Shown here: positions 1-9,889 of the stretch, piece by piece
Position numbering within the stretch: position 1 is the first letter of the stretch
Layout: every line of letters begins with the position of its first letter
NCBI GenBank assembly: GCA_964480335.1
Contig: CAYZOK010000006.1
Coordinates: forward strand, 1 to 9,889
Direction: 5' to 3'
Origin: an uncultured Candidatus Bathyarchaeia archaeon
GTDB taxonomy: Archaea; Thermoproteota; Bathyarchaeia; CAYZOK01
DNA length: 9,889 bases
Notes under the pieces: generated by a model
What the model was told of the DNA's origin: nothing
Databases searched by the model: none
The model's input: the letters and a program-made list of their open reading frames with translations, nothing else
Translations under genes and position numbers: made by a program

Positions 1-186
1 CCAGAGAAGCTGCGCGAAAAAGGGCACGCTCAGCTGGAAGACGAAGACCAGCATCTCAGATGCCCTCCGAGCGCTCCTCATCGGCACAGTTCGCAAACAC
101 GTTCCGACGAAATACCCGAGCAGGCAGAGAGACCACGCTATTAGGAACATCTCGTAGTTCATGACGACGTACGCTTCCAGCGTCAT
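1..186 (-). CDS. Partial integral membrane protein (N-terminal 62 codons; continues past window start). The N-terminus resembles AEC (auxin-efflux-carrier type) permeases.
   Basis: ATG at 186..184, open to position 1: MTLEAYVVMNYEMFLIAWSLCLLGYFVGTCLRTVPMRSARRASEMLVFVFQLSVPFFAQLLW. This gives two hydrophobic segments separated by a basic loop. The LLGYxxG ... VPxxxxLL pattern recalls AEC family N-termini. It is absent from the ORF track because there is no stop inside the window. The exactly antisense + frame (1..147) is also open but hydrophilic and low-complexity. Confidence 0.45.
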   Translation of the reverse strand, partial: MTLEAYVVMNYEMFLIAWSLCLLGYFVGTCLRTVPMRSARRASEMLVFVFQLSVPFFAQLLW

Positions 187-219
187 TTCCTCATGCGGTC
201 GGCGCCGTCAGGCCTGCGC

Positions 220-227
220 TATTTAAG
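220..227 (-). promoter_or_regulatory. Candidate TATA box (CTTAAATA on minus strand) for the partial permease gene
   Basis: The A/T-rich octamer lies about 35 nt upstream of the ATG at 186. This is consistent with an archaeal TATA at about -27 and a roughly 10-nt leader. A similar TTAAA-type element sits upstream of the three tRNA units in this window. Confidence 0.3.
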
Positions 228-235
228 CTTTCGCC

Positions 236-347
236 TGTTAGTACACTAACATTATTCGTGGACGAGGGGTGAATTTCCTCGTTTTCTCCAACTTCAGACC
301 TTCGGGCTGCGGGCGCGGGCTCACGAATAGTGTTAGTTTACTAACAC
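236..347. repeat. Imperfect 25-bp inverted repeat (arms 236..260 and 322..346, 23/25 complementary) around a 61-bp GC-rich spacer. Each arm contains its own palindrome, GTTAGT-NN-ACTAAC.
   Basis: Arm 1 is tgttagtacactaacattattcgtg. The reverse complement of arm 2 is tgttagtaaactaacactattcgtg. The nested palindromes are gttagtACactaac (237..250) and gtgttagtTTactaacac (330..347), with centres 95 bp apart. The spacer has a small hairpin, acgagg/cctcgt (262..267 and 277..282). Confidence 0.7.
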
Positions 348-384
348 ATACCTAAGCAAGCTCTCAGACAGGCCTTCCCGCAAG

Positions 385-404
385 AGTGTGTCCCGGGACA
401 CACT
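385..404. repeat. Perfect 20-bp palindrome AGTGTGTCCCGGGACACACT, immediately downstream of the stop of the 384-aa ORF. Possible 3'-end hairpin or protein-binding site.
   Basis: The sequence is self-complementary over all 20 nt. It lies 5 nt past the stop codon at 410..412 on the minus strand. No oligo-T run follows on the transcribed strand, so it is not a classical terminator. Confidence 0.6.
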
Positions 405-409
405 TTCCG

Positions 410-1564
410 CTACCATTGGGCGAGGACTTTGTAGGCAAGGTACGAAGCGCCGTCCTCCATCTGCACCTCCTCGACCTTGAGGTAGCCCTTGTCGCGGAGC
501 TTCAGGATGATGTCGTCCGCCTCGCCCAAAGACAGCCCTTCCCGCTCGCGTAGCACCCTCCACAACGTGTCGATCCGCTTCACTCTTAGCGCACTCGCAA
601 CCTCCATAACGCGGGCGTACTTCTCAGCCTCGCCTCCGAAGTGTATCATGATCAGGAAGGGGACGCGCTCACACAGCACGAGTTTGGCTTCGGAGACGGG
701 AACCTCGACCTCTTCTAGCTCGGTCTTTACGGGCCCTTTAGACCAAGGCCCGTGCGTAATCTTGTGTATTATCTTGCGTATCACCTCCCCTCGGCCTCTT
801 CTAGCTCGGCCTTCTCGCACGACTTCGGCCCGTTTGTGGTATTCGATCTCCCCGATGTGGTACGGCACATAGATCGCTGGCGGGAGCCTCGGCAGTATCG
901 GCTTTAGGGCCTTGTAGCGCTTGCCTCCATACCTCTTCTCAATCAGAGTCGAACACTCGCGATGCCTACCGGCCACGTAGTCCTCGTAGCTATACCAAGG
1001 GCTTTCGAAAGACACATCCGGCCTCTGGTAGAAGAAGCAACGGATACCCAAGGTCGGAACCTTGCGCAGGAGCCCCTTGGCGACCCGGCGAAGCGCTTTG
1101 TAGTATGGAACTTCCCTACGAAGCCGTTTATCGTATTTTCCATGCGCTCGCTCGCCGGAGAACAGATAGAGGTCGGCATAATCCTGTAAAACACGCATAT
1201 TGTCGGTTTCCTCGTAGAAGACGGCGGTCACGAGCCGATTTTCCTTCAGCAGATCTATCACGTCGCTCGGCTCGAACCCGAGCAACAAGACGTTCTGCCA
1301 GTCGGGCCAGTCGATCTTGTTCAGGATGTCCTCCACATCCTCGTTCTCGATCCTCGACGCATCCAAGTACGCCAACCCACTCAGCTTGATGAAGTCGCAC
1401 AGGAGCGCGGCTTCGACCTTCACCTCGCGGATCTTGGCCTTCCGGCGGAAGTACCTGCGCGTGCTCCAGTCCCAAAGCTTGAAGTCCGGCTTCCTGTCAA
1501 TTATGATGCCCTTCTTGACGCGGTAGACGCAGAAGTTCAGAAACGGAATGAACGGAGCCATCAC
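410..1564 (-). CDS. Hypothetical 384-aa protein with a probable C-terminal winged-helix domain; the N-terminal two-thirds are not recognisable
   Basis: This is the longest ORF in the region, with non-repetitive protein-like composition. The C-terminus IDTLWRVLREREGLSLGEADDIILKLRDKGYLKVEEVQMEDGASYLAYKV has a helix-turn-helix plus beta-wing pattern. There is no Walker A, HxH, DxD or other motif I can assign with confidence. The overlapping ORFs at 489..872, 943..1194, 962..1189, 1105..1389, 1128..1475 and 1317..1526 look like shadow frames (Ser/Arg/Pro-rich). Confidence 0.7.
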   Translation of the reverse strand: MMAPFIPFLNFCVYRVKKGIIIDRKPDFKLWDWSTRRYFRRKAKIREVKVEAALLCDFIKLSGLAYLDASRIENEDVEDILNKIDWPDWQNVLLLGFEPSDVIDLLKENRLVTAVFYEETDNMRVLQDYADLYLFSGERAHGKYDKRLRREVPYYKALRRVAKGLLRKVPTLGIRCFFYQRPDVSFESPWYSYEDYVAGRHRECSTLIEKRYGGKRYKALKPILPRLPPAIYVPYHIGEIEYHKRAEVVREGRARRGRGEVIRKIIHKITHGPWSKGPVKTELEEVEVPVSEAKLVLCERVPFLIMIHFGGEAEKYARVMEVASALRVKRIDTLWRVLREREGLSLGEADDIILKLRDKGYLKVEEVQMEDGASYLAYKVLAQW

Positions 1565-1802
1565 GACCGGACTTCTCCACCACCCGGCGAAGACGATCAG
1601 AGGCTTAGAAGAGAGGCTAACCGAGATTCAACACTCGTACGAAGGCATGATTGAGTCGGCTATACACGTGCACCTCGATGAGCGCAATTGCTTAGAGATA
1701 ATCGCAGTGAAGGGCCAATCCGTAAGGATGCGCGAACTTGCTGACAAATTGTTGGCCAATCGAGGAGTTAAGCAGCTTAAAACCATCTTGCTCACTACGT
1801 AG
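1548..1802 (+). CDS. nikR: NikR C-terminal (nickel-binding, ACT-like) domain only. The N-terminal ribbon-helix-helix DNA-binding domain is absent, so this is either a 5'-truncated nikR remnant or a stand-alone domain protein.
   Basis: LLHH...LTEIQHSYEGMIESAIHVHLDERNCLEIIAVKG...LADKLLANRGVK matches the NikR tetramerisation and metal domain, including the H-x-H-x5-C ligand spacing (HVHLDERNC). The frame is closed by TAG at 1524..1526, so no RHH (about 50 aa) can be encoded upstream. The start overlaps the divergent 384-aa ORF by 17 nt. Confidence 0.65.
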   Translation: MNGAITTGLLHHPAKTIRGLEERLTEIQHSYEGMIESAIHVHLDERNCLEIIAVKGQSVRMRELADKLLANRGVKQLKTILLTT

Positions 1803-1863
1803 GCAGCGACCGAGTCTGTACCAGCGCTAAGCTGAATTCTCGCCGCAGAGTTTCCAAATCGGC

Positions 1864-2493
1864 ATGCCCGGTGGATCTGCCTTGCGAAGGAAGCGCTTAG
1901 AAATGCTTCTCTCAAAGGTCAAGCCATTTTCGAGGCCCAAGGTCGAGCTAGAGGAGTATATGCTAGACTGCCGATCCGCAGCAGAGATGTTGTACATCGC
2001 CGAGTTCTTCCACCATGACATACGCGGCAAGGTAGTTGCCGACCTAGGATGCGGCACAGGAATCCTCTCCATCGGAGCCGCTCTGCTTGGAGCCGATTTC
2101 GTAGTCGGCGTTGACATCGACAAAAGCGCGATACGTATTGCTCGAGAAAACAGCGCAGGTCTTGGAGCCGATGTCCAGCTCGTGGTGGGCGATATAGCTT
2201 GCATGAAAGGACCAGTTGACGTCGCACTCACGAATCCTCCTTTTGGGACTCGAAGGCGCGGCGCTGATGTAGCGTTTCTCGAAAAGGCTGTCGAGATCGC
2301 TAGCGTCGTGTACTCGCTCCACAAGCGAGCGAAAGGGAGCCGCGAGTTCCTAACGAGAAGCATCAAATCCTTCGGAGGCAAGGTGGACGCGATCTACGAG
2401 CTAAGGATAGCATTGCCACCGACTTACGAGTTCCACCACAAGAGGCGCTACGAGGTCGATGCTGACCTCTACCGCATCGTCAAAGGCGGCTAA
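1864..2493 (+). CDS. SAM-dependent N6-adenine-type methyltransferase, METTL5-like / COG2263 putative RNA methylase
   Basis: Motif I is [20 protein letters not shown] and motif IV is LTNPPFG. The roughly 200-aa size and the N-terminal [21 protein letters not shown] (LEQY-like) segment are typical of the archaeal/eukaryotic METTL5 family. Confidence 0.85.
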
Positions 2494-2503
2494 GCTCGGT
2501 ACT

Positions 2504-2524
2504 GGCAGAATGCGATCTTCTGCC
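2504..2524. other. 7-bp perfect stem / 7-nt loop hairpin between the convergent methyltransferase gene and tRNA-Thr
   Basis: ggcagaa-tgcgatc-ttctgcc, 11 nt after the TAA of the methyltransferase. No T-tract follows and the function is unknown. Confidence 0.25.
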
Positions 2525-2570
2525 ACCTATTAGGGTTTAGCAGCAACGCTACGCGCCCTAACTAGACCAG

Positions 2571-2643
2571 AGCCCCGGGCGGGTTTCGAACCCGCGACCT
2601 CCGCCTTACCAGAGCGGCGCTCTACCAGCTGAGCTACCGGGGC
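2571..2643 (-). tRNA. tRNA-Thr (anticodon GGU), no encoded CCA, no intron
   Basis: Manual cloverleaf: GCCCCGG-UA-GCUC-AGCUGGUA-GAGC-G-CCGCU-CUGGUAA-GGCGG-AGGUC-GCGGG-UUCGAAA-CCCGC-CCGGGGC-U. All stems pair, with one U-G wobble in the anticodon stem. Confidence 0.95.
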
Positions 2644-2667
2644 TCACCACAGTTTTCTCTAAGATCG

Positions 2668-2674
2668 CTTTAAC
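2668..2674 (-). promoter_or_regulatory. Candidate TATA element (GTTAAAG, minus strand) for tRNA-Thr(GGU)
   Basis: The centre is about 28 nt upstream of the mature tRNA 5' end at 2643. It lies in the divergent tRNA/rpiA intergenic region. Confidence 0.35.
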
Positions 2675-2688
2675 ATTCTTCGAGTAAT

Positions 2689-3384
2689 TTGTCTTGGCGA
2701 GAAGAAGCGAAGAAGAGAGCTGCGCTAGCGATGCTCGAATGCGTTGAAGACAACCACGTTGTCGGACTCGGAAGCGGTAGCACAGTTGAGTATGCCATAC
2801 GAGAGCTCGGAAAGCTGGTTAAGCGGGGCAAGCTGAGGATAACGGGCGTCGCAACTTCGATAAGGACTGAGATCATCGCACGCGATTCTGGAATCTCCCT
2901 CACAACTCTCGAGGATGTGGGAAGGCTTGACGTTGCGATAGACGGAGCCGATCAAGTCGATCGGCGACTCAACTTGATCAAAGGCAAGGGTGGAGCTCTG
3001 GCTAGGGAGAAGATCGTGGCGTCAGCTGCTGATAGATATGTTATAGCCGTCGATGAAACGAAGCTGACAGAAAAGTTGGGCGTAGGAGTGCCCATTCCGA
3101 TCGAGGTCCTGCCCTTTGGAGCATCACTTGTCATGTCAAGGCTTCGCGAGTTGGGTGGGATACCGACATTGCGCGAAGCTGAGAGGAAGCTGGGACCGGT
3201 CATCACCGATAACGGGAATTTCATTGTCGATGTTGAGTTCGGAAAGATCGACGACCTAGAAGGCCTAAATCGTAAGCTTAAGGCAATGCCAGGTGTCGTC
3301 GAGACCGGACTTTTCCTCGGAATGGCAGATGCAGCCTACGTTGGCTTCAAGAGGGGAGGAATTGAAGTCTTAACGCGAGCTTAA
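2689..3384 (+). CDS. rpiA: Ribose-5-phosphate isomerase A
   Basis: VVGLGSGST, DGADQVD, LIKGKGGALAREKIVA, PIEVLPF and VITDNGNFIVD are all RpiA signature segments. The TTG start at 2689 is favoured because the conserved N-terminal helix (EEAKKRAALAMLECV) precedes the first ATG at 2731. Confidence 0.92.
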   Translation: MSWREEAKKRAALAMLECVEDNHVVGLGSGSTVEYAIRELGKLVKRGKLRITGVATSIRTEIIARDSGISLTTLEDVGRLDVAIDGADQVDRRLNLIKGKGGALAREKIVASAADRYVIAVDETKLTEKLGVGVPIPIEVLPFGASLVMSRLRELGGIPTLREAERKLGPVITDNGNFIVDVEFGKIDDLEGLNRKLKAMPGVVETGLFLGMADAAYVGFKRGGIEVLTRA

Positions 3385-3984
3385 CCAAAGTTTCGCATTT
3401 TCGAGAGCGAGCTTCACGTGCCAACCGTCTTCGACCCAAGGTCCATGCCCTGGAAATAATAACCGAACCTCAAGCTTCGCCAGCCTTTCCAGCGACTTCA
3501 GCATGTCGACATCTCTGAGCTCGACTTTCCCGAAGTAGCCGTTAGCAAAGACAGTATCTCCGCTGAAAAGAGCCTTGCTTGCCGCATGATATAGGCATAT
3601 GCTGCCCTTTGTGTGGCCAGGAGTCCTGAGGACGCGAAGAGGGCCTAATTCCGTCTTGACGAGAGCATATTCTTGCAACAGCTCAACATCGATTCCGCAG
3701 CTGTGTCCGATTATCGATGCATCGTATCCGCAAGCCAGCACGTGTGGTGAGGCCTTCTCCACTATCTCAGCAAGTCCTCCGACATGATCAGAATGGCAGT
3801 GCGTCAAGACGACTTGAGCTACATTTTTGATGGATAGACCTGCTGACTCTAGCGCCGATTCTAGCCTTATACCACCGGAGCCTGTGTCGATCAACGTTAT
3901 CTGGTCTCGCCCCAGCGTGTAGACATTCGAACAGAGGTTTCGCCCCTCGATCCCCCAGGCATTGGCAAGTTTCAGCGGAAGCAA
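3370..3984 (-). CDS. MBL-fold metallo-hydrolase (beta-lactamase-like superfamily), about 204 aa
   Basis: The HxHxDH motif (THCHSDHVGG) is present, followed by PGHTKGS, SGDTVF and FPGHGPW, the full set of MBL metal-ligand motifs. The track ORF (to 4071) reads through tRNA-Met. The only in-frame start codon between the tRNA and the first conserved strand (ITLIDTG) is TTG at 3984..3982. The 3' end overlaps rpiA convergently by 15 nt. Confidence 0.8.
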   Translation of the reverse strand: MLPLKLANAWGIEGRNLCSNVYTLGRDQITLIDTGSGGIRLESALESAGLSIKNVAQVVLTHCHSDHVGGLAEIVEKASPHVLACGYDASIIGHSCGIDVELLQEYALVKTELGPLRVLRTPGHTKGSICLYHAASKALFSGDTVFANGYFGKVELRDVDMLKSLERLAKLEVRLLFPGHGPWVEDGWHVKLALENAKLWLSSR

Positions 3985-3992
3985 CTCAGAAG

Positions 3993-4067
3993 TGCCGGGG
4001 GTGGGACTTGAACCCACGAACTCCGGATTATGAGTCCGGCGCCTTAACCAGCCTGGGCTACCCCGGC
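3993..4067 (-). tRNA. tRNA with CAU anticodon: elongator tRNA-Met, or tRNA-Ile2 if C34 is modified. It is not initiator-like (G1:C72). No encoded CCA.
   Basis: Manual cloverleaf: GCCGGGG-UA-GCCC-AGGCUGGUUA-AGGC-G-CCGGA-CUCAUAA-UCCGG-AGUUC-GUGGG-UUCAAGU-CCCAC-CCCCGGC-A. There is one C:A mismatch at the base of the D stem. Confidence 0.9.
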
Positions 4068-4092
4068 TCACTTCGAGATGCGATGCCGAGTC

Positions 4093-4099
4093 GTTTAAG
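4093..4099 (-). promoter_or_regulatory. Candidate TATA element (CTTAAAC, minus strand) for tRNA-Met, and possibly for the downstream MBL gene
   Basis: The centre is about 29 nt upstream of the tRNA 5' end at 4067 and is preceded by a purine-rich AAAACG (BRE-like). Confidence 0.35.
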
Positions 4100-4130
4100 C
4101 GTTTTAGATCGCAGGAGCATCAGTTTTTCT

Positions 4131-4144
4131 GAAAAATTTCTTTA
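4131..4144 (+). promoter_or_regulatory. Candidate A/T-rich TATA region for pgk (would give a leaderless or near-leaderless mRNA)
   Basis: gaaaaatttcttta is centred about 28 nt upstream of the GTG start at 4167. It lies next to a small palindrome, tttttc-t-gaaaaa. Confidence 0.25.
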
Positions 4145-4166
4145 CGCTAACGCGAAGTGTTAGAGT

Positions 4167-5396
4167 GTGGTAAAGATCGGCCCATTTGAATTTTTGACGA
4201 TAGATGATGTCGAAACGAGTGGGAAGCGGATTTTGTTGCGCGCCGACATAAACTCGCCGATAGATGTTGAGCGAGGAATCATCCTCAATGATAGACGGAT
4301 CCGAGCAATAACCGAAACGCTGCGTGACCTTCGCGATGCTAAGGTCGTTTTGACATCACACCAAGGCAGGCCTGGTCGCGACGATTTCAGCTCCTTAGCT
4401 CCTCATGCGGAAATCTTGCAGAAGTATCATGACGGTCCTATTAAGTTCGTAGAAGATGTCATAGGCCCCACCACCATCGAAGCCATACGCGAGCTGGAAG
4501 ATGGGGAGGTTTTAGTTCTCGAGAACGTCAGGTTCTGCTCCGAAGAGATGCTCGAGAAACCTCCCCATGAGCTCGTTAACACGTACATTGTCCGCCGACT
4601 CGCCCCTCACTTCGATTTATTCATAAACGATGCATTTGCAGCAGCCCATCGTTCGCAGCCCAGCCTCGTAGGGTTCGCCGAAATCTTGCCTACAGCAGCT
4701 GGCAGAGTCATGGAGCGCGAACTCAAAGCGTTAGCACAGGTACTAAAGAGACCATCCAGGCCAGTGGTCGTAGCCCTTGGTGGGGTGAAGATCGAAGACC
4801 GGGTTCCAGGAGTAAGAAAGCTCCTTGAGCGGAGAGTCGCGGACAAAGTCCTCGTAACAGGCTTAGTAGGACTAGTTTTCCTCAAAGCCAGAGGATACAG
4901 GCTGGGGGCAGAGACAGAATCCATGATCATGGAAGAATTCGTTCGAGAGGCTGAATCGATACTAGCGAAGTATGGCGATCAGATACTGACCCCGGTAGAC
5001 GTGGCTTGGGAGGAGGATGGAAAGCGTGCAGAAAGCTCGGTGCTCGAGCTCGAAAGTCCGCCTCCACTTCTCGACGTGGGCGAGAGGACAATCGAAGCAT
5101 TCTCAGCAGAGCTTGAGAAGGCGGGAACGGTAGTAGCGCTAGGACCTGCAGGTGTTTACGAGAGAGGGGGCTTTGAAAAGGGGACCACCAGACTGCTTCA
5201 CGCCATAGCCGATGGTAAAGCCGACACGACTTTGATAGGAGGAGGTCACTTAATCGCGGTCGTTGAGGGGGAAAAGCTGGCCGATAAGTTTACCTACGTA
5301 AGCACGGGCGGAGGCGCCCTCCTTTACGTGCTCTCAGGTCGTGACATGCCCGTCATTGAAGCTCTAAGGAGGGCTGCGAGGCGCTCTTATCGCTAG
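4167..5396 (+). CDS. pgk: Phosphoglycerate kinase (archaeal type)
   Basis: RADINSP, SHQGRPG, ENVRF, NDAFAAAHR, GGVKIEDR and STGGGALL motifs are present. The length is 409 aa and the start is GTG. Confidence 0.95.
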   Translation: MVKIGPFEFLTIDDVETSGKRILLRADINSPIDVERGIILNDRRIRAITETLRDLRDAKVVLTSHQGRPGRDDFSSLAPHAEILQKYHDGPIKFVEDVIGPTTIEAIRELEDGEVLVLENVRFCSEEMLEKPPHELVNTYIVRRLAPHFDLFINDAFAAAHRSQPSLVGFAEILPTAAGRVMERELKALAQVLKRPSRPVVVALGGVKIEDRVPGVRKLLERRVADKVLVTGLVGLVFLKARGYRLGAETESMIMEEFVREAESILAKYGDQILTPVDVAWEEDGKRAESSVLELESPPPLLDVGERTIEAFSAELEKAGTVVALGPAGVYERGGFEKGTTRLLHAIADGKADTTLIGGGHLIAVVEGEKLADKFTYVSTGGGALLYVLSGRDMPVIEALRRAARRSYR

Positions 5397-5397
5397 G

Positions 5398-5403
5398 TTT
5401 AAT
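5398..5403 (+). promoter_or_regulatory. Candidate TATA element (TTTAAT) for the tRNA-Thr(CGU)/tRNA-Pro(UGG) unit
   Basis: It begins 2 nt after the pgk stop, with its centre about 27 nt upstream of the tRNA-Thr 5' end at 5428. Confidence 0.4.
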
Positions 5404-5427
5404 CCTCGACCTGCGAATGAGCTTTCA

Positions 5428-5499
5428 GCCGGCGTAGCTCAGCGGTAGAGCGGCGGCCTCGTAAGCCGCAGGTCGAGGGTTCGAAACCCTCCGCCGGCT
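5428..5499 (+). tRNA. tRNA-Thr (anticodon CGU), no encoded CCA
   Basis: Manual cloverleaf: GCCGGCG-UA-GCUC-AGCGGUA-GAGC-G-GCGGC-CUCGUAA-GCCGC-AGGUC-GAGGG-UUCGAAA-CCCUC-CGCCGGC-U. Confidence 0.95.
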
Positions 5500-5501
5500 T
5501 T

Positions 5502-5576
5502 GGGTCGGTGGTCCAGCTTGGTCAGGATGCCCGGCTTGGGCCCGGGCGGTCGTGGGTTCGAATCCCACCCGACCCA
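5502..5576 (+). tRNA. tRNA-Pro (anticodon UGG), no encoded CCA
   Basis: Manual cloverleaf: GGGUCGG-UG-GUCC-AGCUUGGUCA-GGAU-G-CCCGG-CUUGGGC-CCGGG-CGGUC-GUGGG-UUCGAAU-CCCAC-CCGACCC-A. G37 is as expected for Pro. Confidence 0.95.
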
Positions 5577-7057
5577 TTTCTAGGGGCATGCTCCATCCTC
5601 GCCCAAGCTTCTTTGGCCGGAGTTAGCGCTTTCTGCGGAAGCTCTAGGACTCGTGTCCTCACGACTACAGGGAACAAAAACGGAGAGGCAGAGCCCCAAA
5701 GGAGAGCTTCGTGATCGTTCAGGCACGGCAGGATCGCCCGAAGCTCGCCTTCGAGGTCGGCGTGATTGGATAACGCTTCCAGGTCGTTAGAGCAAGTCGT
5801 CCTGAAGCAGACGACCGTGTTGCACTGGCTTATGACAGACTTGGAGATGTATGCTGGTCTTTGCGAGACTACGACGAAGCCTAAGTTGTAGCCTCCGGTC
5901 TGGCTCACAGCTTCTATGATCGCCTTATCGACCCGCAAGCGACTTGCCACTCCTTTGAGATCCAGACCCCGTTCGGGCACGTAGCGCTGAGCTTCCTCCA
6001 ACACCACGATAGCCGCGAAGTCTCCCGCCTCAGCTCGGCTAATTGCATGCCTGGTTAGCTCCTCGATTAGGTACTTGACTGCAAGTAACTTACCAGTGAG
6101 GTTCATGTCGAGCGAGAAATCAACAACGACCACGGGATAGCGGTGTAGTAGTCCAACTATGCTGGGAGGGCTCGCACCAAATGCAGAGGTCTTAGCTTGA
6201 AGCGCTTTTCGAATTCTCTCGAGAACTTGCTGATGGTTGCGCTCGAGAGCGGTCGAAGCAAGTTGCTGAACGCGCATCCAAAGCCTTTGCAGATCGGCTG
6301 AGCCGCTTGATTGCACGTCGCGGAGGGCTAACTCAACGAGCTTGCCAGCGCTGCTACACTTCGCGAATCCCAACATATTGGGAAAAACCGAAGGTGGAAC
6401 CGTCATCAAGCTTCTCGAAAAGCAAGTGTGCGGAACTATCACGGCGCCATACTTGGCAAGTGGGCGATATTCGCTTCGTGCATCTAGAATCACGAAGCGA
6501 GGCGTCGGCTCAAGCGACATGGCTTGTAGTACCATGTTTAAAACAAAGCTACTCTTTCCAGACCTCGTCATGCCAGAAATGAGCATGTGACCTCGAGCTA
6601 CCGCATCGAGATCTAGCCGAACTGGAATGTCGATATCGCGGTGGACGCCGACCTCTACACCCAGTCCTTCGCCATCTGCCCTGAGCAAGCTCTTTAGCTC
6701 CTCCAAGCTTGGTTCGAGGACTGGCGACCAACTCTCGGGGCTACACTCCAGCCGAAGCCATCGGCCTTGATCGACGTAGCCTAAAACTTGGGCCCACGCA
6801 ACTTCGTATTCGAGCCTCTTTCCATACCTGAAGGTCGAGCTCTTCTTTGCGGCTATCGGACCGAGCCTGCCCAACGCCATGTCCGGATTGTAGGGAGCTG
6901 ACTCGATTACGCGTACCAAAACCGGAGAGCCGCGCTTTATCGGGTGTGGAATGATGTAGTAGCGACCGAGCAACGCCTTGGCTCCCTCCCTTAGAACGAA
7001 GTAGATGAGGCGAGGCGAAGAGCCCGAGAGGACATAGCCGATTTCTCTCAAGGCCAT
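5522..7057 (-). CDS. herA: HerA-like (FtsK/HerA superfamily, DUF87-type) P-loop ATPase, 511 aa; the last 18 codons are antisense to tRNA-Pro
   Basis: The N-terminal HAS-barrel-like segment is IGYVLSGSSPRLIYFVL...GRYYII...VLVRVIE. Walker A is GMTRSGKS (6551..6574). The Walker B-like motif is AIVVLEEAQRY (EE at 5993..5998). GFVVVSQRP is a HerA/FtsK-type sensor segment. The start overlaps the NurA-like stop by 10 nt. Confidence 0.8.
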   Translation of the reverse strand: MALREIGYVLSGSSPRLIYFVLREGAKALLGRYYIIPHPIKRGSPVLVRVIESAPYNPDMALGRLGPIAAKKSSTFRYGKRLEYEVAWAQVLGYVDQGRWLRLECSPESWSPVLEPSLEELKSLLRADGEGLGVEVGVHRDIDIPVRLDLDAVARGHMLISGMTRSGKSSFVLNMVLQAMSLEPTPRFVILDARSEYRPLAKYGAVIVPHTCFSRSLMTVPPSVFPNMLGFAKCSSAGKLVELALRDVQSSGSADLQRLWMRVQQLASTALERNHQQVLERIRKALQAKTSAFGASPPSIVGLLHRYPVVVVDFSLDMNLTGKLLAVKYLIEELTRHAISRAEAGDFAAIVVLEEAQRYVPERGLDLKGVASRLRVDKAIIEAVSQTGGYNLGFVVVSQRPAYISKSVISQCNTVVCFRTTCSNDLEALSNHADLEGELRAILPCLNDHEALLWGSASPFLFPVVVRTRVLELPQKALTPAKEAWARMEHAPRNGSGGIRTHDRPGPSRAS

Positions 7058-8145
7058 TCGCCGAATCGCGGAGTTAAGAAGTCAAGGTCTCGTGGGTCGA
7101 ATGCTCCTTGGTTCACCATGCTCAAGGCCTTCTCGTGTAGCACAAGTCTATACATGAGCAGCGTTCGCCTCGTGAGCTTGCATCTCCTGTCAGCTTCGGC
7201 TATTGGATGAGGGATTCCGCTTAGGTCTGCTAGGCTTATCAGCAGCGATGCGACTTCGTCTACCCGCTTTAAGCAAAAAGCTGGAATTTCGACCCTGTAA
7301 GGAGGCGTTTCCGCACTTTTGATGTAGAATGCATAGATGGTCGGTCGCTCGACTCCGAGATTTTCTGCGAAGCGGGCGCAGATCCTGTTCATTCCGCTGT
7401 CGACGAGTCTTGGCTTCGTGTAATCGCCGACTTGCATAATCGGGTTGAGCAAGATCGAGTCGCGTAGCGCCGCCGAGCCTACCTTGCGATGGAAGTAGCC
7501 TGTTGAAGGACGTTTGATGAAACCGACCATTGATACCGAAGCTTTGTTGCACTCCTCGAGGGCAAGCAAGATCTCAGCTAGCGTGAGGACGAAGTCAGCC
7601 CTGTAGCCACTTGAGTCTTCAGGTCGAGGTCTTAGCAAGGGGTTCGGGAGTATTGGGCCATCCACCAAGACAACATCCGGCTTCCACTTGCCGACGGCTT
7701 CTCTAACTACGTGAAACTGAAGCGCAAAGTGTAGCAATGACTCTCTTCGCAAGGGATCGGGTTCGTTCGGCCATACATCGGCCGGGCAAGAAGCTAGGAT
7801 CGGATCTGAGCTTTCTCGTCCACCTTCAAAAAGCGTTGCTGCCGCGGAGTACAGTGGAATAAAGGCTGAGGCCAAGTTCTCGCCGTTATGCCCGGCGTCT
7901 ACCCCAACCACGCGTCTGAGCTTGGAGTTCTCGCCGGCTCGCCGAAGCTCAACTTCTAGCTCCAATTGCTGGAGCGCTCGGTTTCTCTCAGCAGCGAGGG
8001 AACGTAGCTTCTTAATGACGAGCGAAGTTGAAGTCTCGATCAAGCCGAAGTGTAGATCTTCGGACGCAAACGGGAGTAGCCATCGGGAAAAATCTCTAAA
8101 CCCTAGGCGACGATGATTCGGTTGGGTGCGACGGAGCAGGGTCAT
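7048..8145 (-). CDS. nurA: NurA-like nuclease domain protein, 365 aa
   Basis: The NurA-type motif series is VVGVDAGHNG (first acidic motif), RRESLLHFALQ, VVLVDGPILPNPL (DGxL motif), MVGFIKRPST (K-x-S/T strand), YAFYIK....YRVEIP, and GIPHPIAEADRRC (C-terminal P-x-P...A-D/H helix). It is translationally coupled to the HerA-like gene, the classical HerA partner arrangement. Confidence 0.7.
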   Translation of the reverse strand: MTLLRRTQPNHRRLGFRDFSRWLLPFASEDLHFGLIETSTSLVIKKLRSLAAERNRALQQLELEVELRRAGENSKLRRVVGVDAGHNGENLASAFIPLYSAAATLFEGGRESSDPILASCPADVWPNEPDPLRRESLLHFALQFHVVREAVGKWKPDVVLVDGPILPNPLLRPRPEDSSGYRADFVLTLAEILLALEECNKASVSMVGFIKRPSTGYFHRKVGSAALRDSILLNPIMQVGDYTKPRLVDSGMNRICARFAENLGVERPTIYAFYIKSAETPPYRVEIPAFCLKRVDEVASLLISLADLSGIPHPIAEADRRCKLTRRTLLMYRLVLHEKALSMVNQGAFDPRDLDFLTPRFGEWP

Positions 8146-8196
8146 CTTGCCCTCATCCGCCCCCTGCTGCCGAGTCTCCCGCTCCGTTGCACCCAG

Positions 8197-8643
8197 CTAG
8201 GCAACAACGTACACGTACCCATCTTTAGTCTTCCACCTCCTGAGCTTCCCGCGCTGCGTAAGCCTCTGCAGAGTTTTACCGATGGTTGATGCAGGATGGT
8301 GGAGGGCGCTTGACCTAAGGGCGTCCATCATCTCGCCTAGCGTACGCGGTTTAGCGCGCCCCCATTTGGATTGCAGAAGTTGCATTACAGCATCCGCGCA
8401 GCTTTTCGGCGCAGTTACGCTCGGAGCTCCCTCGCCAATCGAGGCTGTGATCGGCGGAGCAGAGGTTGCAACTGTAGTTGCGGGCTGAGGAAGTGTCTCG
8501 CCCAACTCTCCGAACGCTTTAGAAACGGCCTCTACGACTGGTGCGAGATTTTCGAGCACCTGCAGAACTTCTTGGCGAGCGCCGCTGACTTCGACTTCGT
8601 AAGCGCCGATTTTGATGCGAATCGAGAATCTAGGTTCGGACAT
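8197..8643 (-). CDS. Small paralog 3 (148 aa): conserved N-terminal beta module, Pro/Ala/Thr/Ser-rich linker, then a C-terminal winged helix
   Basis: The N-terminus FSIRIKIGAYEVEVSGARQEVLQVL matches the N-termini of the two upstream proteins. The linker LPQPATTVATSAPPITASIGEGAPSVTAP spans 8407..8493. The C-terminus is TLGEMMDAL...STIGKTLQRLTQRGKLRRWKTKDGYVYV (wHTH). The start overlaps the upstream gene by 14 nt. Confidence 0.75.
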   Translation of the reverse strand: MSEPRFSIRIKIGAYEVEVSGARQEVLQVLENLAPVVEAVSKAFGELGETLPQPATTVATSAPPITASIGEGAPSVTAPKSCADAVMQLLQSKWGRAKPRTLGEMMDALRSSALHHPASTIGKTLQRLTQRGKLRRWKTKDGYVYVVA

Positions 8644-9133
8644 GCTCAGCTTCCTTCAGCCTCGGCATCAAACTCTCACTCGCCGCCTTCGCGCCCAGCA
8701 ACGTTATCCTATATTCCTTGCCAGCCCTCTCGATCAGACCGGCTTTGACAAGCGATGGCAGCACGTTACGTATCGTTTTTTCGACCTTGCCAGTTGCAAC
8801 CGAAAGCTCGCGTACCGACAACGTAGGCTTGGAAAGCTCTCCTACTTGCTCACCGACGTAAGCAGCGAGAAGCGCGAGCTGGATGGCTTCCTCAGCCGTA
8901 GCCTTGATCGCGCTCTCAAGCCTAGGACCTTGCGGCAGAATTGCAACCAAGCCAGCTAGTTGATCGGCCAGCTCTGCTACATCGGGCCTGTAGACAAGCT
9001 TCGCAGCCACCCTGATCTGAGGAAGCTTCTGCGAAAGGGCCATGTGCAGTGCTTTCAGGGCTTCTTCCGGAGATTTGCCTTCAACTTCGAGCCTTATGTC
9101 GCCATATTCGACGCGGATCCGGATGGCTCTCAT
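8630..9133 (-). CDS. Small paralog 2 (167 aa): N-terminal beta module, helical middle region, then a MarR/TrmB-like winged helix
   Basis: IRIRVEYGDIRLEVEGKSPEEALKAL; DVAELADQLAGLVAILPQG; EEAIQLALLAAYVGEQVG; SVRELSVATGKVEKTIRNVLPSLVKAGLIERAGKEYRITLLG. The protein is colinear with paralog 1 along its whole length. It has an ATGA start/stop overlap with paralog 1. Confidence 0.8.
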   Translation of the reverse strand: MRAIRIRVEYGDIRLEVEGKSPEEALKALHMALSQKLPQIRVAAKLVYRPDVAELADQLAGLVAILPQGPRLESAIKATAEEAIQLALLAAYVGEQVGELSKPTLSVRELSVATGKVEKTIRNVLPSLVKAGLIERAGKEYRITLLGAKAASESLMPRLKEAEHVRT

Positions 9134-9675
9134 AGGTGCTCACTCAAGATTCTCTCCCTTATCCGAGGAAGCGCCGTGTCCAAGAACATCTTGATCCCCA
9201 CGGTCGTTATCCGGTAATCTCCTCGTCCGACACGAGATACCCATCCTCCGCCGACGAGCTCGCTAAGTCTGGCAGCTATAGCACTTTTCTTCGAGCCCGT
9301 GACCTCTGCTAATTCGGATACTGTCATAGAATCGCACTCCAAGCGACCCAGCTGATAGCCGAGATAAGCTTTCACCAAGTGGAGAAGAATAGCCTCTCGG
9401 TCAGTCAAACGAGGGATTACAATGGGCATGACCGCCAAACCTTCAGGGGTTATAGCGATCAAGCCCTCTACCGCTTCGGCTAAGCTTGACACGTCGATGC
9501 TTAAGGTCAAGCGCGAAATAGGCCCAATCGTCGGCGCAATCCTGCTCATGAAGCCCATTATTCCTCGAAGAACCTCATCGGGGCTTCCAGAGAAGAATGC
9601 TTCTAGGTCTCCGTACTTAACCCGCACTTCCAGTTTGCGTTCTTCGGGCCTTTCACGCTCCACATATTCTATCAC
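9130..9675 (-). CDS. Small paralog 1 (181 aa, or 177 aa from the alternative GTG at 9663): same architecture as paralog 2
   Basis: LEVRVKYGDLEAFFSGSPDEVLRGI; DVSSLAEAVEGLIAITPEG; REAILLHLVKAYLGYQLG; TVSELAEVTGSKKSAIAARLSELVGGGWVSRVGRGDYRITTVG. The GTG start at 9675 is 12 to 40 nt downstream of the A/T-rich palindromic block. Confidence 0.8.
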   Translation of the reverse strand: MIEYVERERPEERKLEVRVKYGDLEAFFSGSPDEVLRGIMGFMSRIAPTIGPISRLTLSIDVSSLAEAVEGLIAITPEGLAVMPIVIPRLTDREAILLHLVKAYLGYQLGRLECDSMTVSELAEVTGSKKSAIAARLSELVGGGWVSRVGRGDYRITTVGIKMFLDTALPRIRERILSEHL

Positions 9676-9686
9676 GTACTTAGATG

Positions 9687-9716
9687 TTTAAAAATTTCGA
9701 AATTTACGTAAATTTA
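9687..9716 (-). promoter_or_regulatory. A/T-rich promoter/operator candidate: TTTTTAAA (minus, 9687..9694) plus three AAATTT hexamers forming two overlapping perfect palindromes
   Basis: aaatttCGaaattt (9692..9705, 14-bp palindrome) and aaatttACGTaaattt (9700..9715, 16-bp palindrome) share the central hexamer. This is the only strongly A/T-rich stretch in the right half of the window. TTTTTAAA is centred about 27 nt upstream of the alternative GTG at 9663. Confidence 0.45.
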
Positions 9717-9889
9717 GCTTCAAGTATCTCTTTCTTCAATTCAAAATATCCAAGGCGTTTTAGATCCTCAAGCCAGCGCCATCTTTCCTCGGGTTTAGCG
9801 CGCTTCCCTATTCTGTAGAGCCTTCTAAGGAGCTCGCGCTTCCATTCTAGCGTTCGGACGATCTCTCCTCTCTCTGATGCAAACTTGAG
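9704..9889 (-). CDS. Partial ORF (C-terminal 61 codons; the gene starts beyond the window end), basic/helical, unknown function
   Basis: The minus frame is open from 9889 to TAA at 9706..9704: LKFASERGEIVRTLEWKRELLRRLYRIGKRAKPEERWRWLEDLKRLGYFELKKEILEAKFT. All three + frames carry stops here. It is on the same strand as the operon and only 28 nt upstream of it. It is not in the ORF track because it is truncated. Confidence 0.4.
   Translation of the reverse strand, partial: LKFASERGEIVRTLEWKRELLRRLYRIGKRAKPEERWRWLEDLKRLGYFELKKEILEAKFT

Follow-up and report, generated by a model that had tools for sequence, protein, structure and literature searches.

In Sulfolobus, Pyrococcus and Thermococcus, the canonical archaeal HerA-NurA pair is encoded in the classic herA-mre11-rad50-nurA operon. 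The pair cooperates with Mre11-Rad50 in the resection of DNA double-strand breaks (DSBs) in thermophilic archaea, and neither its recruitment to DNA ends nor its coordination with Mre11-Rad50 has been described in detail (PMC7776575). The bacterial NurA-HerA of Deinococcus radiodurans and Thermus thermophilus is non-essential (PMC7776575). Here we analysed a stretch of 9,889 nucleotides (nt), hereafter the window, from the genome of an uncultured Candidatus Bathyarchaeia archaeon (assembly GCA_964480335.1, contig CAYZOK010000006.1, positions 1 to 9,889), a member of a class that is counted among the most abundant uncultured archaeal groups (PMC10321748). In this window a NurA-family nuclease and a HerA/DUF87 ATPase are encoded together with three small winged-helix (WH) proteins, which we call A, B and C. 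Since the combination recurs across Bathyarchaeia, in places beside Mre11-Rad50, it looks like a DNA-break-repair machine and not like an anti-virus island. The evidence leans, with moderate confidence, towards a lineage-specific archaeal HerA-NurA machine for DNA-end processing (DSB resection, recombination repair) with WH accessory subunits. An earlier reading made from the letters of the window alone (the sequence-only reading) had listed such a specialised end-processing machine among its alternatives, and it is the one that the evidence favours.

The five genes lie on the minus strand. A is an open reading frame (ORF) at 9130-9675, of 181 aa from a GTG at 9675; a GTG at 9663, which gives 177 aa, is the more likely start. 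It is followed by the ORFs of B (8630-9133, 167 aa) and C (8197-8643, 148 aa), by that of the NurA-family nuclease (7048-8145, 365 aa) and by that of the HerA/DUF87 ATPase, a protein of the hexameric-translocase type (5522-7057; 511 aa from an ATG at 7057, or 509 aa from a TTG at 7051). For the ATPase, the TTG agrees better with the N-termini of orthologs (MKEIGY...) than the ATG does. A and B overlap by 4 nt, B and C overlap by 14 nt, a gap of 51 nt separates C from nurA, and nurA overlaps herA by 10 nt with the ATG or by 4 nt with the TTG. Positions, overlaps and gap alike confirm the gene layout proposed in the sequence-only reading. Throughout, type 1 (NurA1 and HerA1) denotes the nuclease-ATPase pair of the window and type 2 the commoner pair of the related loci.

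The identity of the pair was settled with Pfam, in agreement with the earlier assignment. The 365-aa protein matches the NurA family over profile positions 2-253 of 254 (E=1.7e-15, 57.7 bits, cutoff 21), and the 511-aa protein matches DUF87/HerA (E=2.7e-9, 37.9 bits, cutoff 23.2) and FtsK_SpoIIIE (E=5e-6), with a weak HAS-barrel match (14.4 bits, cutoff 25.2). The sequence of HerA1 reads GMTRSGKS at the Walker A and VVLEEA at the Walker B position. NurA1 shares with its orthologs D83, a D162-G motif, K211 and a C-terminal EAD motif. The latter aligns with an LAH motif in type 2, and the first Asp, the DG, the Lys and the C-terminal A[D/H] are catalytic-type motifs common to both NurA types. 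The locus thus resembles the canonical archaeal system: overlapping genes encode a HerA/DUF87 ATPase and a NurA nuclease that has catalytic-type residues, and relatives of the cassette stand beside mre11-rad50 or in one gene run with them. It departs from that system in scoring far below the equivalog models, in its order, which here is nurA and then herA, and in the two to six WH paralogs encoded with the pair, none of which we found described for the canonical system. HerA1 reaches 29.1 and 28.2 bits against the NCBIfam equivalogs NF040937 and NF040819, whose cutoffs are 800 and 970, and Sulfolobus HerA (PDB 4d2i) matches it only at E=2e-5; NurA1 has no NCBIfam NurA match. The pair is therefore non-canonical, as had been proposed. 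With the bacterial NurA-HerA it shares a role that is not tied to an Mre11-Rad50 operon, but the bacterial pair has no WH paralogs and the module is archaeal, Thermoproteota-specific and linked to mre11-rad50 in some of its members.

The small proteins had been described as three winged-helix paralogs outside any named family, and both parts of that description held. A and B are 36% identical (BLAST, E=1e-29). For C, BLAST aligns only the N-terminal ~45 aa (E=6e-4); comparison of C with the A profile by hhalign gave 93.5% probability over 132 columns (E=2e-7), and from these alignments we take C to be a remote paralog of A and B. A protein encoded in related loci, X4, aligns with A at 96.6% probability (hhalign) and is a fourth paralog. 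In Pfam, A, B and C have only sub-threshold matches to winged helix-turn-helix (wHTH) families, located in their C-terminal halves (residues 110-160 in A); residues 99-150 of B give weak wHTH, Csa3 and CasR helix-turn-helix (HTH) matches. The 101 members of the WH family that we compared with Pfam matched generic wHTH families only, and every homolog with a source name is called 'hypothetical protein' or 'uncharacterized protein'. Orthologs in other Bathyarchaeia are 47-54% (A), 33-36% (B) and 31-41% (C) identical to the proteins of the window.

In addition to the wHTH, A, B, C and X4 have an N-terminal beta-hairpin/helical domain of about 85 residues without detectable relatives. The AlphaFold2 model of A, built from a 34-sequence alignment, has a predicted local distance difference test (pLDDT) score of 81. 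Its residues 15-82 begin with a beta-hairpin, continue through three helices and close with another hairpin; the wHTH and a long C-terminal helix come after them. In this model the helix-helix-helix-hairpin order of the N-terminal domain looks WH-like. A Foldseek search with the model matched AspA of pNOB8 and MarR and IclR-type proteins through the wHTH part alone, and the C-terminal half superposes on AspA with a template modelling (TM) score of about 0.7 (target-normalised) and a root-mean-square deviation of about 3 Å. That half of A is thus like the small dimeric wHTH binders with a C-terminal helix (pNOB8 AspA, PadR and MarR-type proteins), which the WH proteins do not resemble in their extra N-terminal domain and in forming multi-paralog sets linked to a nuclease-ATPase pair. 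C is distinctive in combining an acidic N-terminal half with a strongly basic C-terminal winged helix (isoelectric point, pI, 10.7). One member from Caldarchaeales has a sub-threshold match to EAP30/Vps36 (E=1.2e-3), a family outside the 25 most frequent among the 101 members. By analogy, a likeness to the tandem-WH subunits Vps22/25/36 of ESCRT-II or to the SMC 'kite' proteins may be kept as a lead only.

To establish how widely the arrangement recurs we combined several searches. A word-indexed protein database returned 57 relatives of A, every one a Bathyarchaeia/MCG protein with a hypothetical annotation. The same type of search with NurA1 found the protein itself and one weak match and missed orthologs that are 37% identical; having overlooked known NurA1 orthologs, it is uninformative on rarity. 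Three neighbourhoods of protein A, from unrelated genomic contexts, read alike: each runs from a small protein (X4) through A, B and C to proteins of ~355 aa and ~490 aa, the latter with DUF87. We then scanned an alignment of A against one genome per GTDB species, retrieved 80 loci and classed their ORFs with hidden Markov models (HMMs) built from the first loci. The A family is present in at least 95 species-level genomes, essentially all of them Bathyarchaeia. Seventeen of the 80 loci are cut by contig ends; in 51 of the 63 informative ones the NurA-HerA pair stands beside the WH genes (48 with type 2, 3 with type 1). Conservation of the arrangement elsewhere, which the sequence-only reading had counted on, was thereby found, and nurA-herA pairing itself is kept in about 66 related loci.

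The layouts recur in a small number of forms, given here with > and < for the direction of each gene. The simplest is X4>A>B>C>NurA>HerA; others are gatD>gatE> c4< A>B> c13< C< NurA>HerA and X4> c6< A>B>NurA>HerA, and in gatD>gatE>X4> c4< A>B> the nuclease-ATPase pair is not nearby. The recurrent flanking clusters are of housekeeping type, namely gatDE (from Pfam) and thiolase/DUF35-, rpoH- and pyrK-like genes (read from their sequences). The three type-1 loci of the GTDB set (L017, L035 and L040) have a divergent arrangement, HerA1< NurA1< C> c4< X4>A>B>. A scan of metagenomes with a type-1 HerA alignment added L096 and L100, with the same divergent layout, and L097 and L099, which share the order of the window, A>B>C>NurA1>HerA1, with X4 in front of it.

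The family also reaches beyond Bathyarchaeia. An exhaustive comparison of the A/B profile with 1.84 billion representative proteins yielded 460 relatives with E<=1e-3, of which 187 had E<=1e-10; remote members come from Caldarchaeales ('Aigarchaeota') and from metagenome-assembled genomes of other Thermoproteota. The neighbourhoods from Caldarchaeales and from the other lineage contain two small paralogs, a NurA-like protein and a DUF87 protein; in Caldarchaeales a C ortholog is also present, on the opposite strand, and in the other Thermoproteota lineage the set lies among genes for ribosomal proteins, CdvA, enolase, Pelota and PolD. By the HMMs the NurA-HerA pairs of these neighbourhoods are of type 2, and the small proteins sort into the same A/B, C and X4 lineages, so that the divergence of the paralogs predates the split of these classes.

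The two types of pair are very different from each other. NurA1 and type-2 NurA are 15-16% identical when aligned and have no BLAST match, and the HerA proteins are about 21% identical. By comparison, NurA1 and HerA1 are 37-38% and 42-43% identical to their orthologs in L017, L035 and L040. Judged by these alignments, the type-1 pair appears non-orthologous to the type-2 pair, yet it has kept orthologous A, B and C proteins. The type-2 HerA family is large: 2395 clusters or more match at E<=1e-10. The best 120 of these score about 740-800 bits, and among them all source names that bear a taxon point to Bathyarchaeia/Bathyarchaeota and no label goes beyond DUF87, ATP-binding or HerA-like. A type-1 contig, L097, and two type-2 contigs from the same sample, L093 and L095, belong to different organisms, as their GC content and tetranucleotide usage show, so that they are silent on the coexistence of the two types in one genome.

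On some contigs of type 2 the module has mre11-rad50 genes as neighbours. Three look-ups that started from type-2 HerA on long contigs all led to WH paralogs upstream (3/3). In L093 and L095 a Metallophos protein (399-403 aa) and an SMC_N protein (695 aa) are encoded on the same strand, within 0.5-3.5 kb after the pair, with Mre11 (112-121 bits) and Rad50 (198-212 bits) as their best NCBIfam matches. When we searched all loci with these Mre11 and Rad50 proteins we found a third case, L067, in which X4, A, C, NurA2, HerA2, Mre11 and Rad50 are encoded as a single tight series on one strand, none of the gaps exceeding 24 nt and the Mre11 and Rad50 genes overlapping by 4 nt. Over the three loci the best NCBIfam scores are 112-121 bits for Mre11 and 172-212 bits for Rad50. 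Other repair genes also adjoin the module, each in a single lineage: XPF/Hef lies upstream in L095; in the Caldarchaeales locus L089 (10425-12511) the end of the HerA2 gene shares 4 nt with the gene after it, for the 8-oxoguanine glycosylase Ogg, a further repair protein within one transcription unit, and an RsmB-type methyltransferase gene is next; and in L017 and L100 HerA1 is followed by an Lhr-like helicase, identified from its helicase motifs. The placement of the module next to mre11-rad50 is strong guilt-by-association evidence for a role in repair.

The Rad50 homologs beside the module are short. They measure 687-695 aa (L067 12132-14195, L093 13136-15223 and L095 10212-12299), compared with about 870-895 aa for the archaeal Rad50 profiles, which implies a much shorter coiled coil.

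Several observations weigh against a repair machine of this kind. The link to Mre11-Rad50 is confined to type 2, in 3 of about 60 type-2 loci, and we found no mre11 or rad50 beside any type-1 locus examined. Neither gene occurs in the window, as the sequence-only reading had observed, or in the 17-18 kb that were read of its 24-25 kb contig, a further departure from the canonical operon. That reading had named flanking mre11-rad50 genes as a finding that would count against its proposal; such genes do flank the module in the relatives L067, L093 and L095, but not in the window itself. In 12 of the GTDB loci, where A and B are mostly joined by X4, the pair is missing from the 5 kb to each side; the tie between the WH proteins and NurA-HerA is therefore not a strict one. 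Their N-terminal domain has no recognisable fold match: modelled by itself it reaches a pLDDT of 58, and Foldseek returned nothing meaningful for it. Lastly, the best PDB, NCBIfam and PADLOC matches of HerA1, all of them weak, are anti-phage HerAs and not the canonical repair HerA.

These last matches are the main basis for a different explanation, which the sequence-only reading had preferred: that the module defends against viruses or plasmids, with HerA as scaffold, NurA as effector and the WH paralogs as sensors of foreign DNA or adaptors. HerA1 matches the PADLOC HerA models at 5e-26 and PDB entries 8wiv, 9c1m and 8xau at ~1e-12. The organisation recalls the Sir2-HerA and DUF4297-HerA anti-phage systems (PDB 8wiv, 8xau and 8j4u), which also join a HerA-family ATPase to an effector enzyme. 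Weak AbiEi and Csa3-type HTH matches in the WH domains, the tRNA genes that flank the cassette, and the swap of the NurA-HerA pair for a non-orthologous one in the lineage of the window, module exchange being common in defence systems, can be read in the same way. The partner here, however, is NurA, and the anti-phage scores fall far short of the family cutoffs: HerA1 obtains 61 bits against NF042943 (HerA_antiphage; cutoff 800) and 56.7 against NF042944 (cutoff 850), and the canonical models score only slightly lower. PADLOC hits to HerA1 are to generic HerA models only, and NurA1 has no PADLOC match. The module, moreover, is spread over the many species-level genomes of one class counted above and over other classes, in a conserved housekeeping context that includes gatD-gatE synteny, and we found no defence genes among the annotated recurrent flanking clusters. 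IMG/VR viral contigs held no relatives of the A family or of type-1 HerA, and a tblastn search of plasmids with HerA gave partial matches only, at no more than 32% identity. Together with the three genomes in which the module adjoins mre11-rad50 or shares an operon with it, these results make a defence function improbable and favour end processing.

We next considered the surroundings of the cassette, reading the context beyond the window from two matching ENA metagenome scaffolds and one Logan contig. Downstream, the operon adjoins two plus-strand tRNA genes, tRNA-Thr(CGU) at 5427-5500 and tRNA-Pro(UGG) at 5501-5577; that the operon abuts a tRNA had been recognised in the sequence-only reading. 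The final 56 nt of the HerA ORF (5522-5577) cross tRNA-Pro in antisense, and the HerA stop codon lies inside the tRNA gene. Compared with L017, L035 and L040, the conserved core of HerA1 ends at about residue 489 (about position 5591), at AWARME, and the 22-residue tail (5522-5590) is therefore non-conserved read-through. Upstream of A, and separated from it by 28 nt, is X216, a minus-strand gene for a very basic 216-aa protein (pI 10, net charge +19) that occupies 9704-9889 and runs off the end of the window (full gene at L002 7792-8442). X216 has no match in Pfam, in PDB sequences or in the 88 related loci compared, and its position is filled in relatives by the fourth WH paralog, X4. On this comparison we treat X216 as a probable non-conserved neighbour, outside the module. 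Past it, beyond the right end of the window, lie a 5S rRNA gene (L002 7427-7546) and an intron-bearing tRNA-Trp(CCA) gene (L002 7609-7735), the latter missed by ARAGORN and found by Rfam. With RNA genes at both ends, the cassette and X216 are bracketed by RNA genes. Housekeeping genes make up the rest of the neighbourhood: PGK, ribose-5-phosphate isomerase, a methyltransferase, both PheRS subunits, methionine aminopeptidase and DUF1512.

Such a setting had suggested a tRNA-linked island. Another possibility is that a plasmid or virus with a DNA-pumping or packaging module once inserted at tRNA-Pro and left the cassette behind. In its favour are the overlap of the HerA ORF with tRNA-Pro, PHROG matches that include FtsK-like proteins and a terminase, and the upstream basic 216-aa gene, unique to this genome. 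Against it, the Pfam and gene tables of the locus contain no integrase, the GC content is flat across the cassette and matches its flanks, and no duplicated tRNA fragment is present. A 38-nt direct repeat that flanks the region was considered as a tRNA integration or attachment (att) site and rejected, for it is the common T-arm and 3' part of the acceptor of two complete and different tRNAs, tRNA-Trp(CCA) and tRNA-Pro(UGG). Viral relatives are lacking in IMG/VR, as noted above, and about 100 other loci carry orthologous cassettes in housekeeping settings unrelated to this one. Neither the tRNA-linked island, whose counterparts elsewhere have housekeeping and partly syntenic contexts, nor the plasmid- or virus-derived pump that the sequence-only reading had listed is borne out; the latter is largely refuted and scarcely credible. 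The same absence of integrase, att site and GC anomaly counts against defence.

The RNA genes and the other ORFs of the window merit brief comment. The spacer between tRNA-Thr(CGU) and tRNA-Pro(UGG) is 0-2 nt, the boundaries from ARAGORN and Rfam differing slightly, which suggests a dicistronic precursor for the two tRNAs. At 410-1564 on the minus strand is a 384-aa ORF, also a gene in the ENA record, without a match in Pfam, NCBIfam, PADLOC or PHROGs. An 84-aa ORF on the plus strand (1548-1802) overlaps the end of this opposite-strand ORF by 17 nt and consists of the C-terminal nickel-binding domain of NikR (Pfam 1.9e-23), without the N-terminal ribbon-helix-helix domain. A minus-strand ORF of the metallo-beta-lactamase fold (3370-4071) in its longest form runs through a same-strand tRNA-Met(CAU) at 3992-4067; its real start is therefore downstream, and the ENA record calls a 174-aa protein.

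The end-processing reading assigns the WH proteins to the machine itself, and the control of the operon bears on the other role that they might have. Upstream of A is an AT-rich spacer and putative promoter (9676-9715), delimited from the sequence, an inverted-repeat scan and a dip in GC to 0.476. Within it, TTTAAAAAT at 9687-9695 is TATA-like, and the hexamer AAATTT, its own complement, occurs three times, at 9692, 9700 and 9710; these copies include a perfect 16-bp palindrome, AAATTTACGTAAATTT, at 9700-9715, which overlaps the stop codon of the upstream X216 gene. By their sequence, the TATA-like box and the AAATTT palindromes may be the promoter or operator of the operon. The spacing of the box fits a leaderless transcript from the GTG at 9663, from which we infer that the transcription unit begins at A. 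In a dozen relatives (L058, L059, L064, L068, L069, L073 and L080-L085) a conserved inverted repeat, CACTTCA ... TGAAGTG, brackets a TATA-like CTTTTATA about 70 nt upstream of A, and a 106-aa wHTH gene, c6, is divergent from A at these loci. The repeat is likely an operator and c6 its regulator. Like c6, c4 encodes another wHTH protein and is divergently transcribed.

It is conceivable, if rather unlikely, that A, B and C are ordinary transcription factors for nurA-herA or for a wider damage regulon, and that the pair works alone as it does in bacteria. Their MarR, PadR or AspA-like C-terminal wHTH is generic, their family members match generic HTH families only, AAATTT palindromes are present in the putative promoter, and the 12 loci with A and B and no adjacent pair are what such regulators could show. 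This view has to contend with three to six paralogs kept as distinct orthologous lineages over class-level divergence, and with WH genes that are translationally coupled through overlaps of 4 and 14 nt and placed upstream in the same operon. In the relatives, the divergent c4 and c6 genes and the conserved inverted repeat around the TATA box offer better regulator candidates. The behaviour of C argues in the same direction. Of 95 non-redundant loci (L002-L101), 32 have both C and NurA, and in every one of them C is the immediate neighbour of NurA, no more than 252 nt away, in any orientation and with either type of NurA; the 26 loci without NurA all lack C. C thus travels with the nuclease-motor pair, while A and B, usually with X4, are also found by themselves next to gatD-gatE.

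The membership of HerA in the FtsK-HerA superfamily would also fit another chromosomal DNA transaction, such as FtsK-like segregation, dimer resolution or fork processing, in which the WH proteins would act as site-specific guides. FtsK is itself guided by a wHTH gamma domain, and the FtsK_SpoIIIE match of HerA1, the presence of the pNOB8 centromere-binding protein AspA among the closest structural matches of the WH domain, and the relative that lies in a core housekeeping neighbourhood by CdvA and PolD are all in line with such a function. We nonetheless give it little credence. A dedicated nuclease with conserved catalytic motifs, and linkage to mre11-rad50, Ogg and XPF, point to repair, and no segregation genes (ParA, SegA or Xer) were seen in the flanks.

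Under the favoured explanation, a DNA-end-processing machine with WH subunits, the parts would work as follows. By homology with characterised complexes, HerA would be a hexameric ATP-driven DNA translocase with the NurA nuclease docked on it. Gene linkage suggests that the co-translated A, B and C, with X4 in most relatives, are stoichiometric DNA-binding accessory subunits. Their task would be to recognise the DNA substrate or keep hold of it, and to load HerA-NurA or gate it, with C as the paralog coupled most directly to the nuclease. The module would be a chromosomal system of long standing, passed on by vertical descent in Bathyarchaeia and neighbouring Thermoproteota, and in the lineage of the window the type-2 pair may have been replaced by, or have diverged into, the type-1 pair while the same WH partners were kept. 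A more specific and clearly more tentative version, possible but not one we would call probable, is that the four paralogs A, B, C and X4 assemble into a hetero-oligomer for DNA-end recognition and loading, perhaps of tandem-WH subunits, which docks on HerA-NurA through C and bridges to Mre11-Rad50.

In the full-text literature that we searched we found no description of a module of WH paralogs, NurA and HerA, and the arrangement is apparently undescribed. If the WH proteins do form an end-recognition and loading complex, they would be a previously unknown class of subunit of the archaeal resection machinery, ancestral to much of Thermoproteota and working with two non-orthologous nuclease-motor pairs. 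The module supplies conserved candidate partners for HerA-NurA throughout Bathyarchaeia and in Caldarchaeales, and the WH genes are short, co-transcribed and easily expressed, which makes a loader or adaptor role directly testable in vitro. It also holds a caution for the mining of defence systems: a HerA, a nuclease and HTH proteins near tRNAs, with anti-phage proteins as best matches, can still be core DNA repair. One WH set associated with two unrelated lineages of NurA-HerA amounts to a swap experiment made by nature, which speaks for a modular interface between the WH proteins and the nuclease-motor pair.

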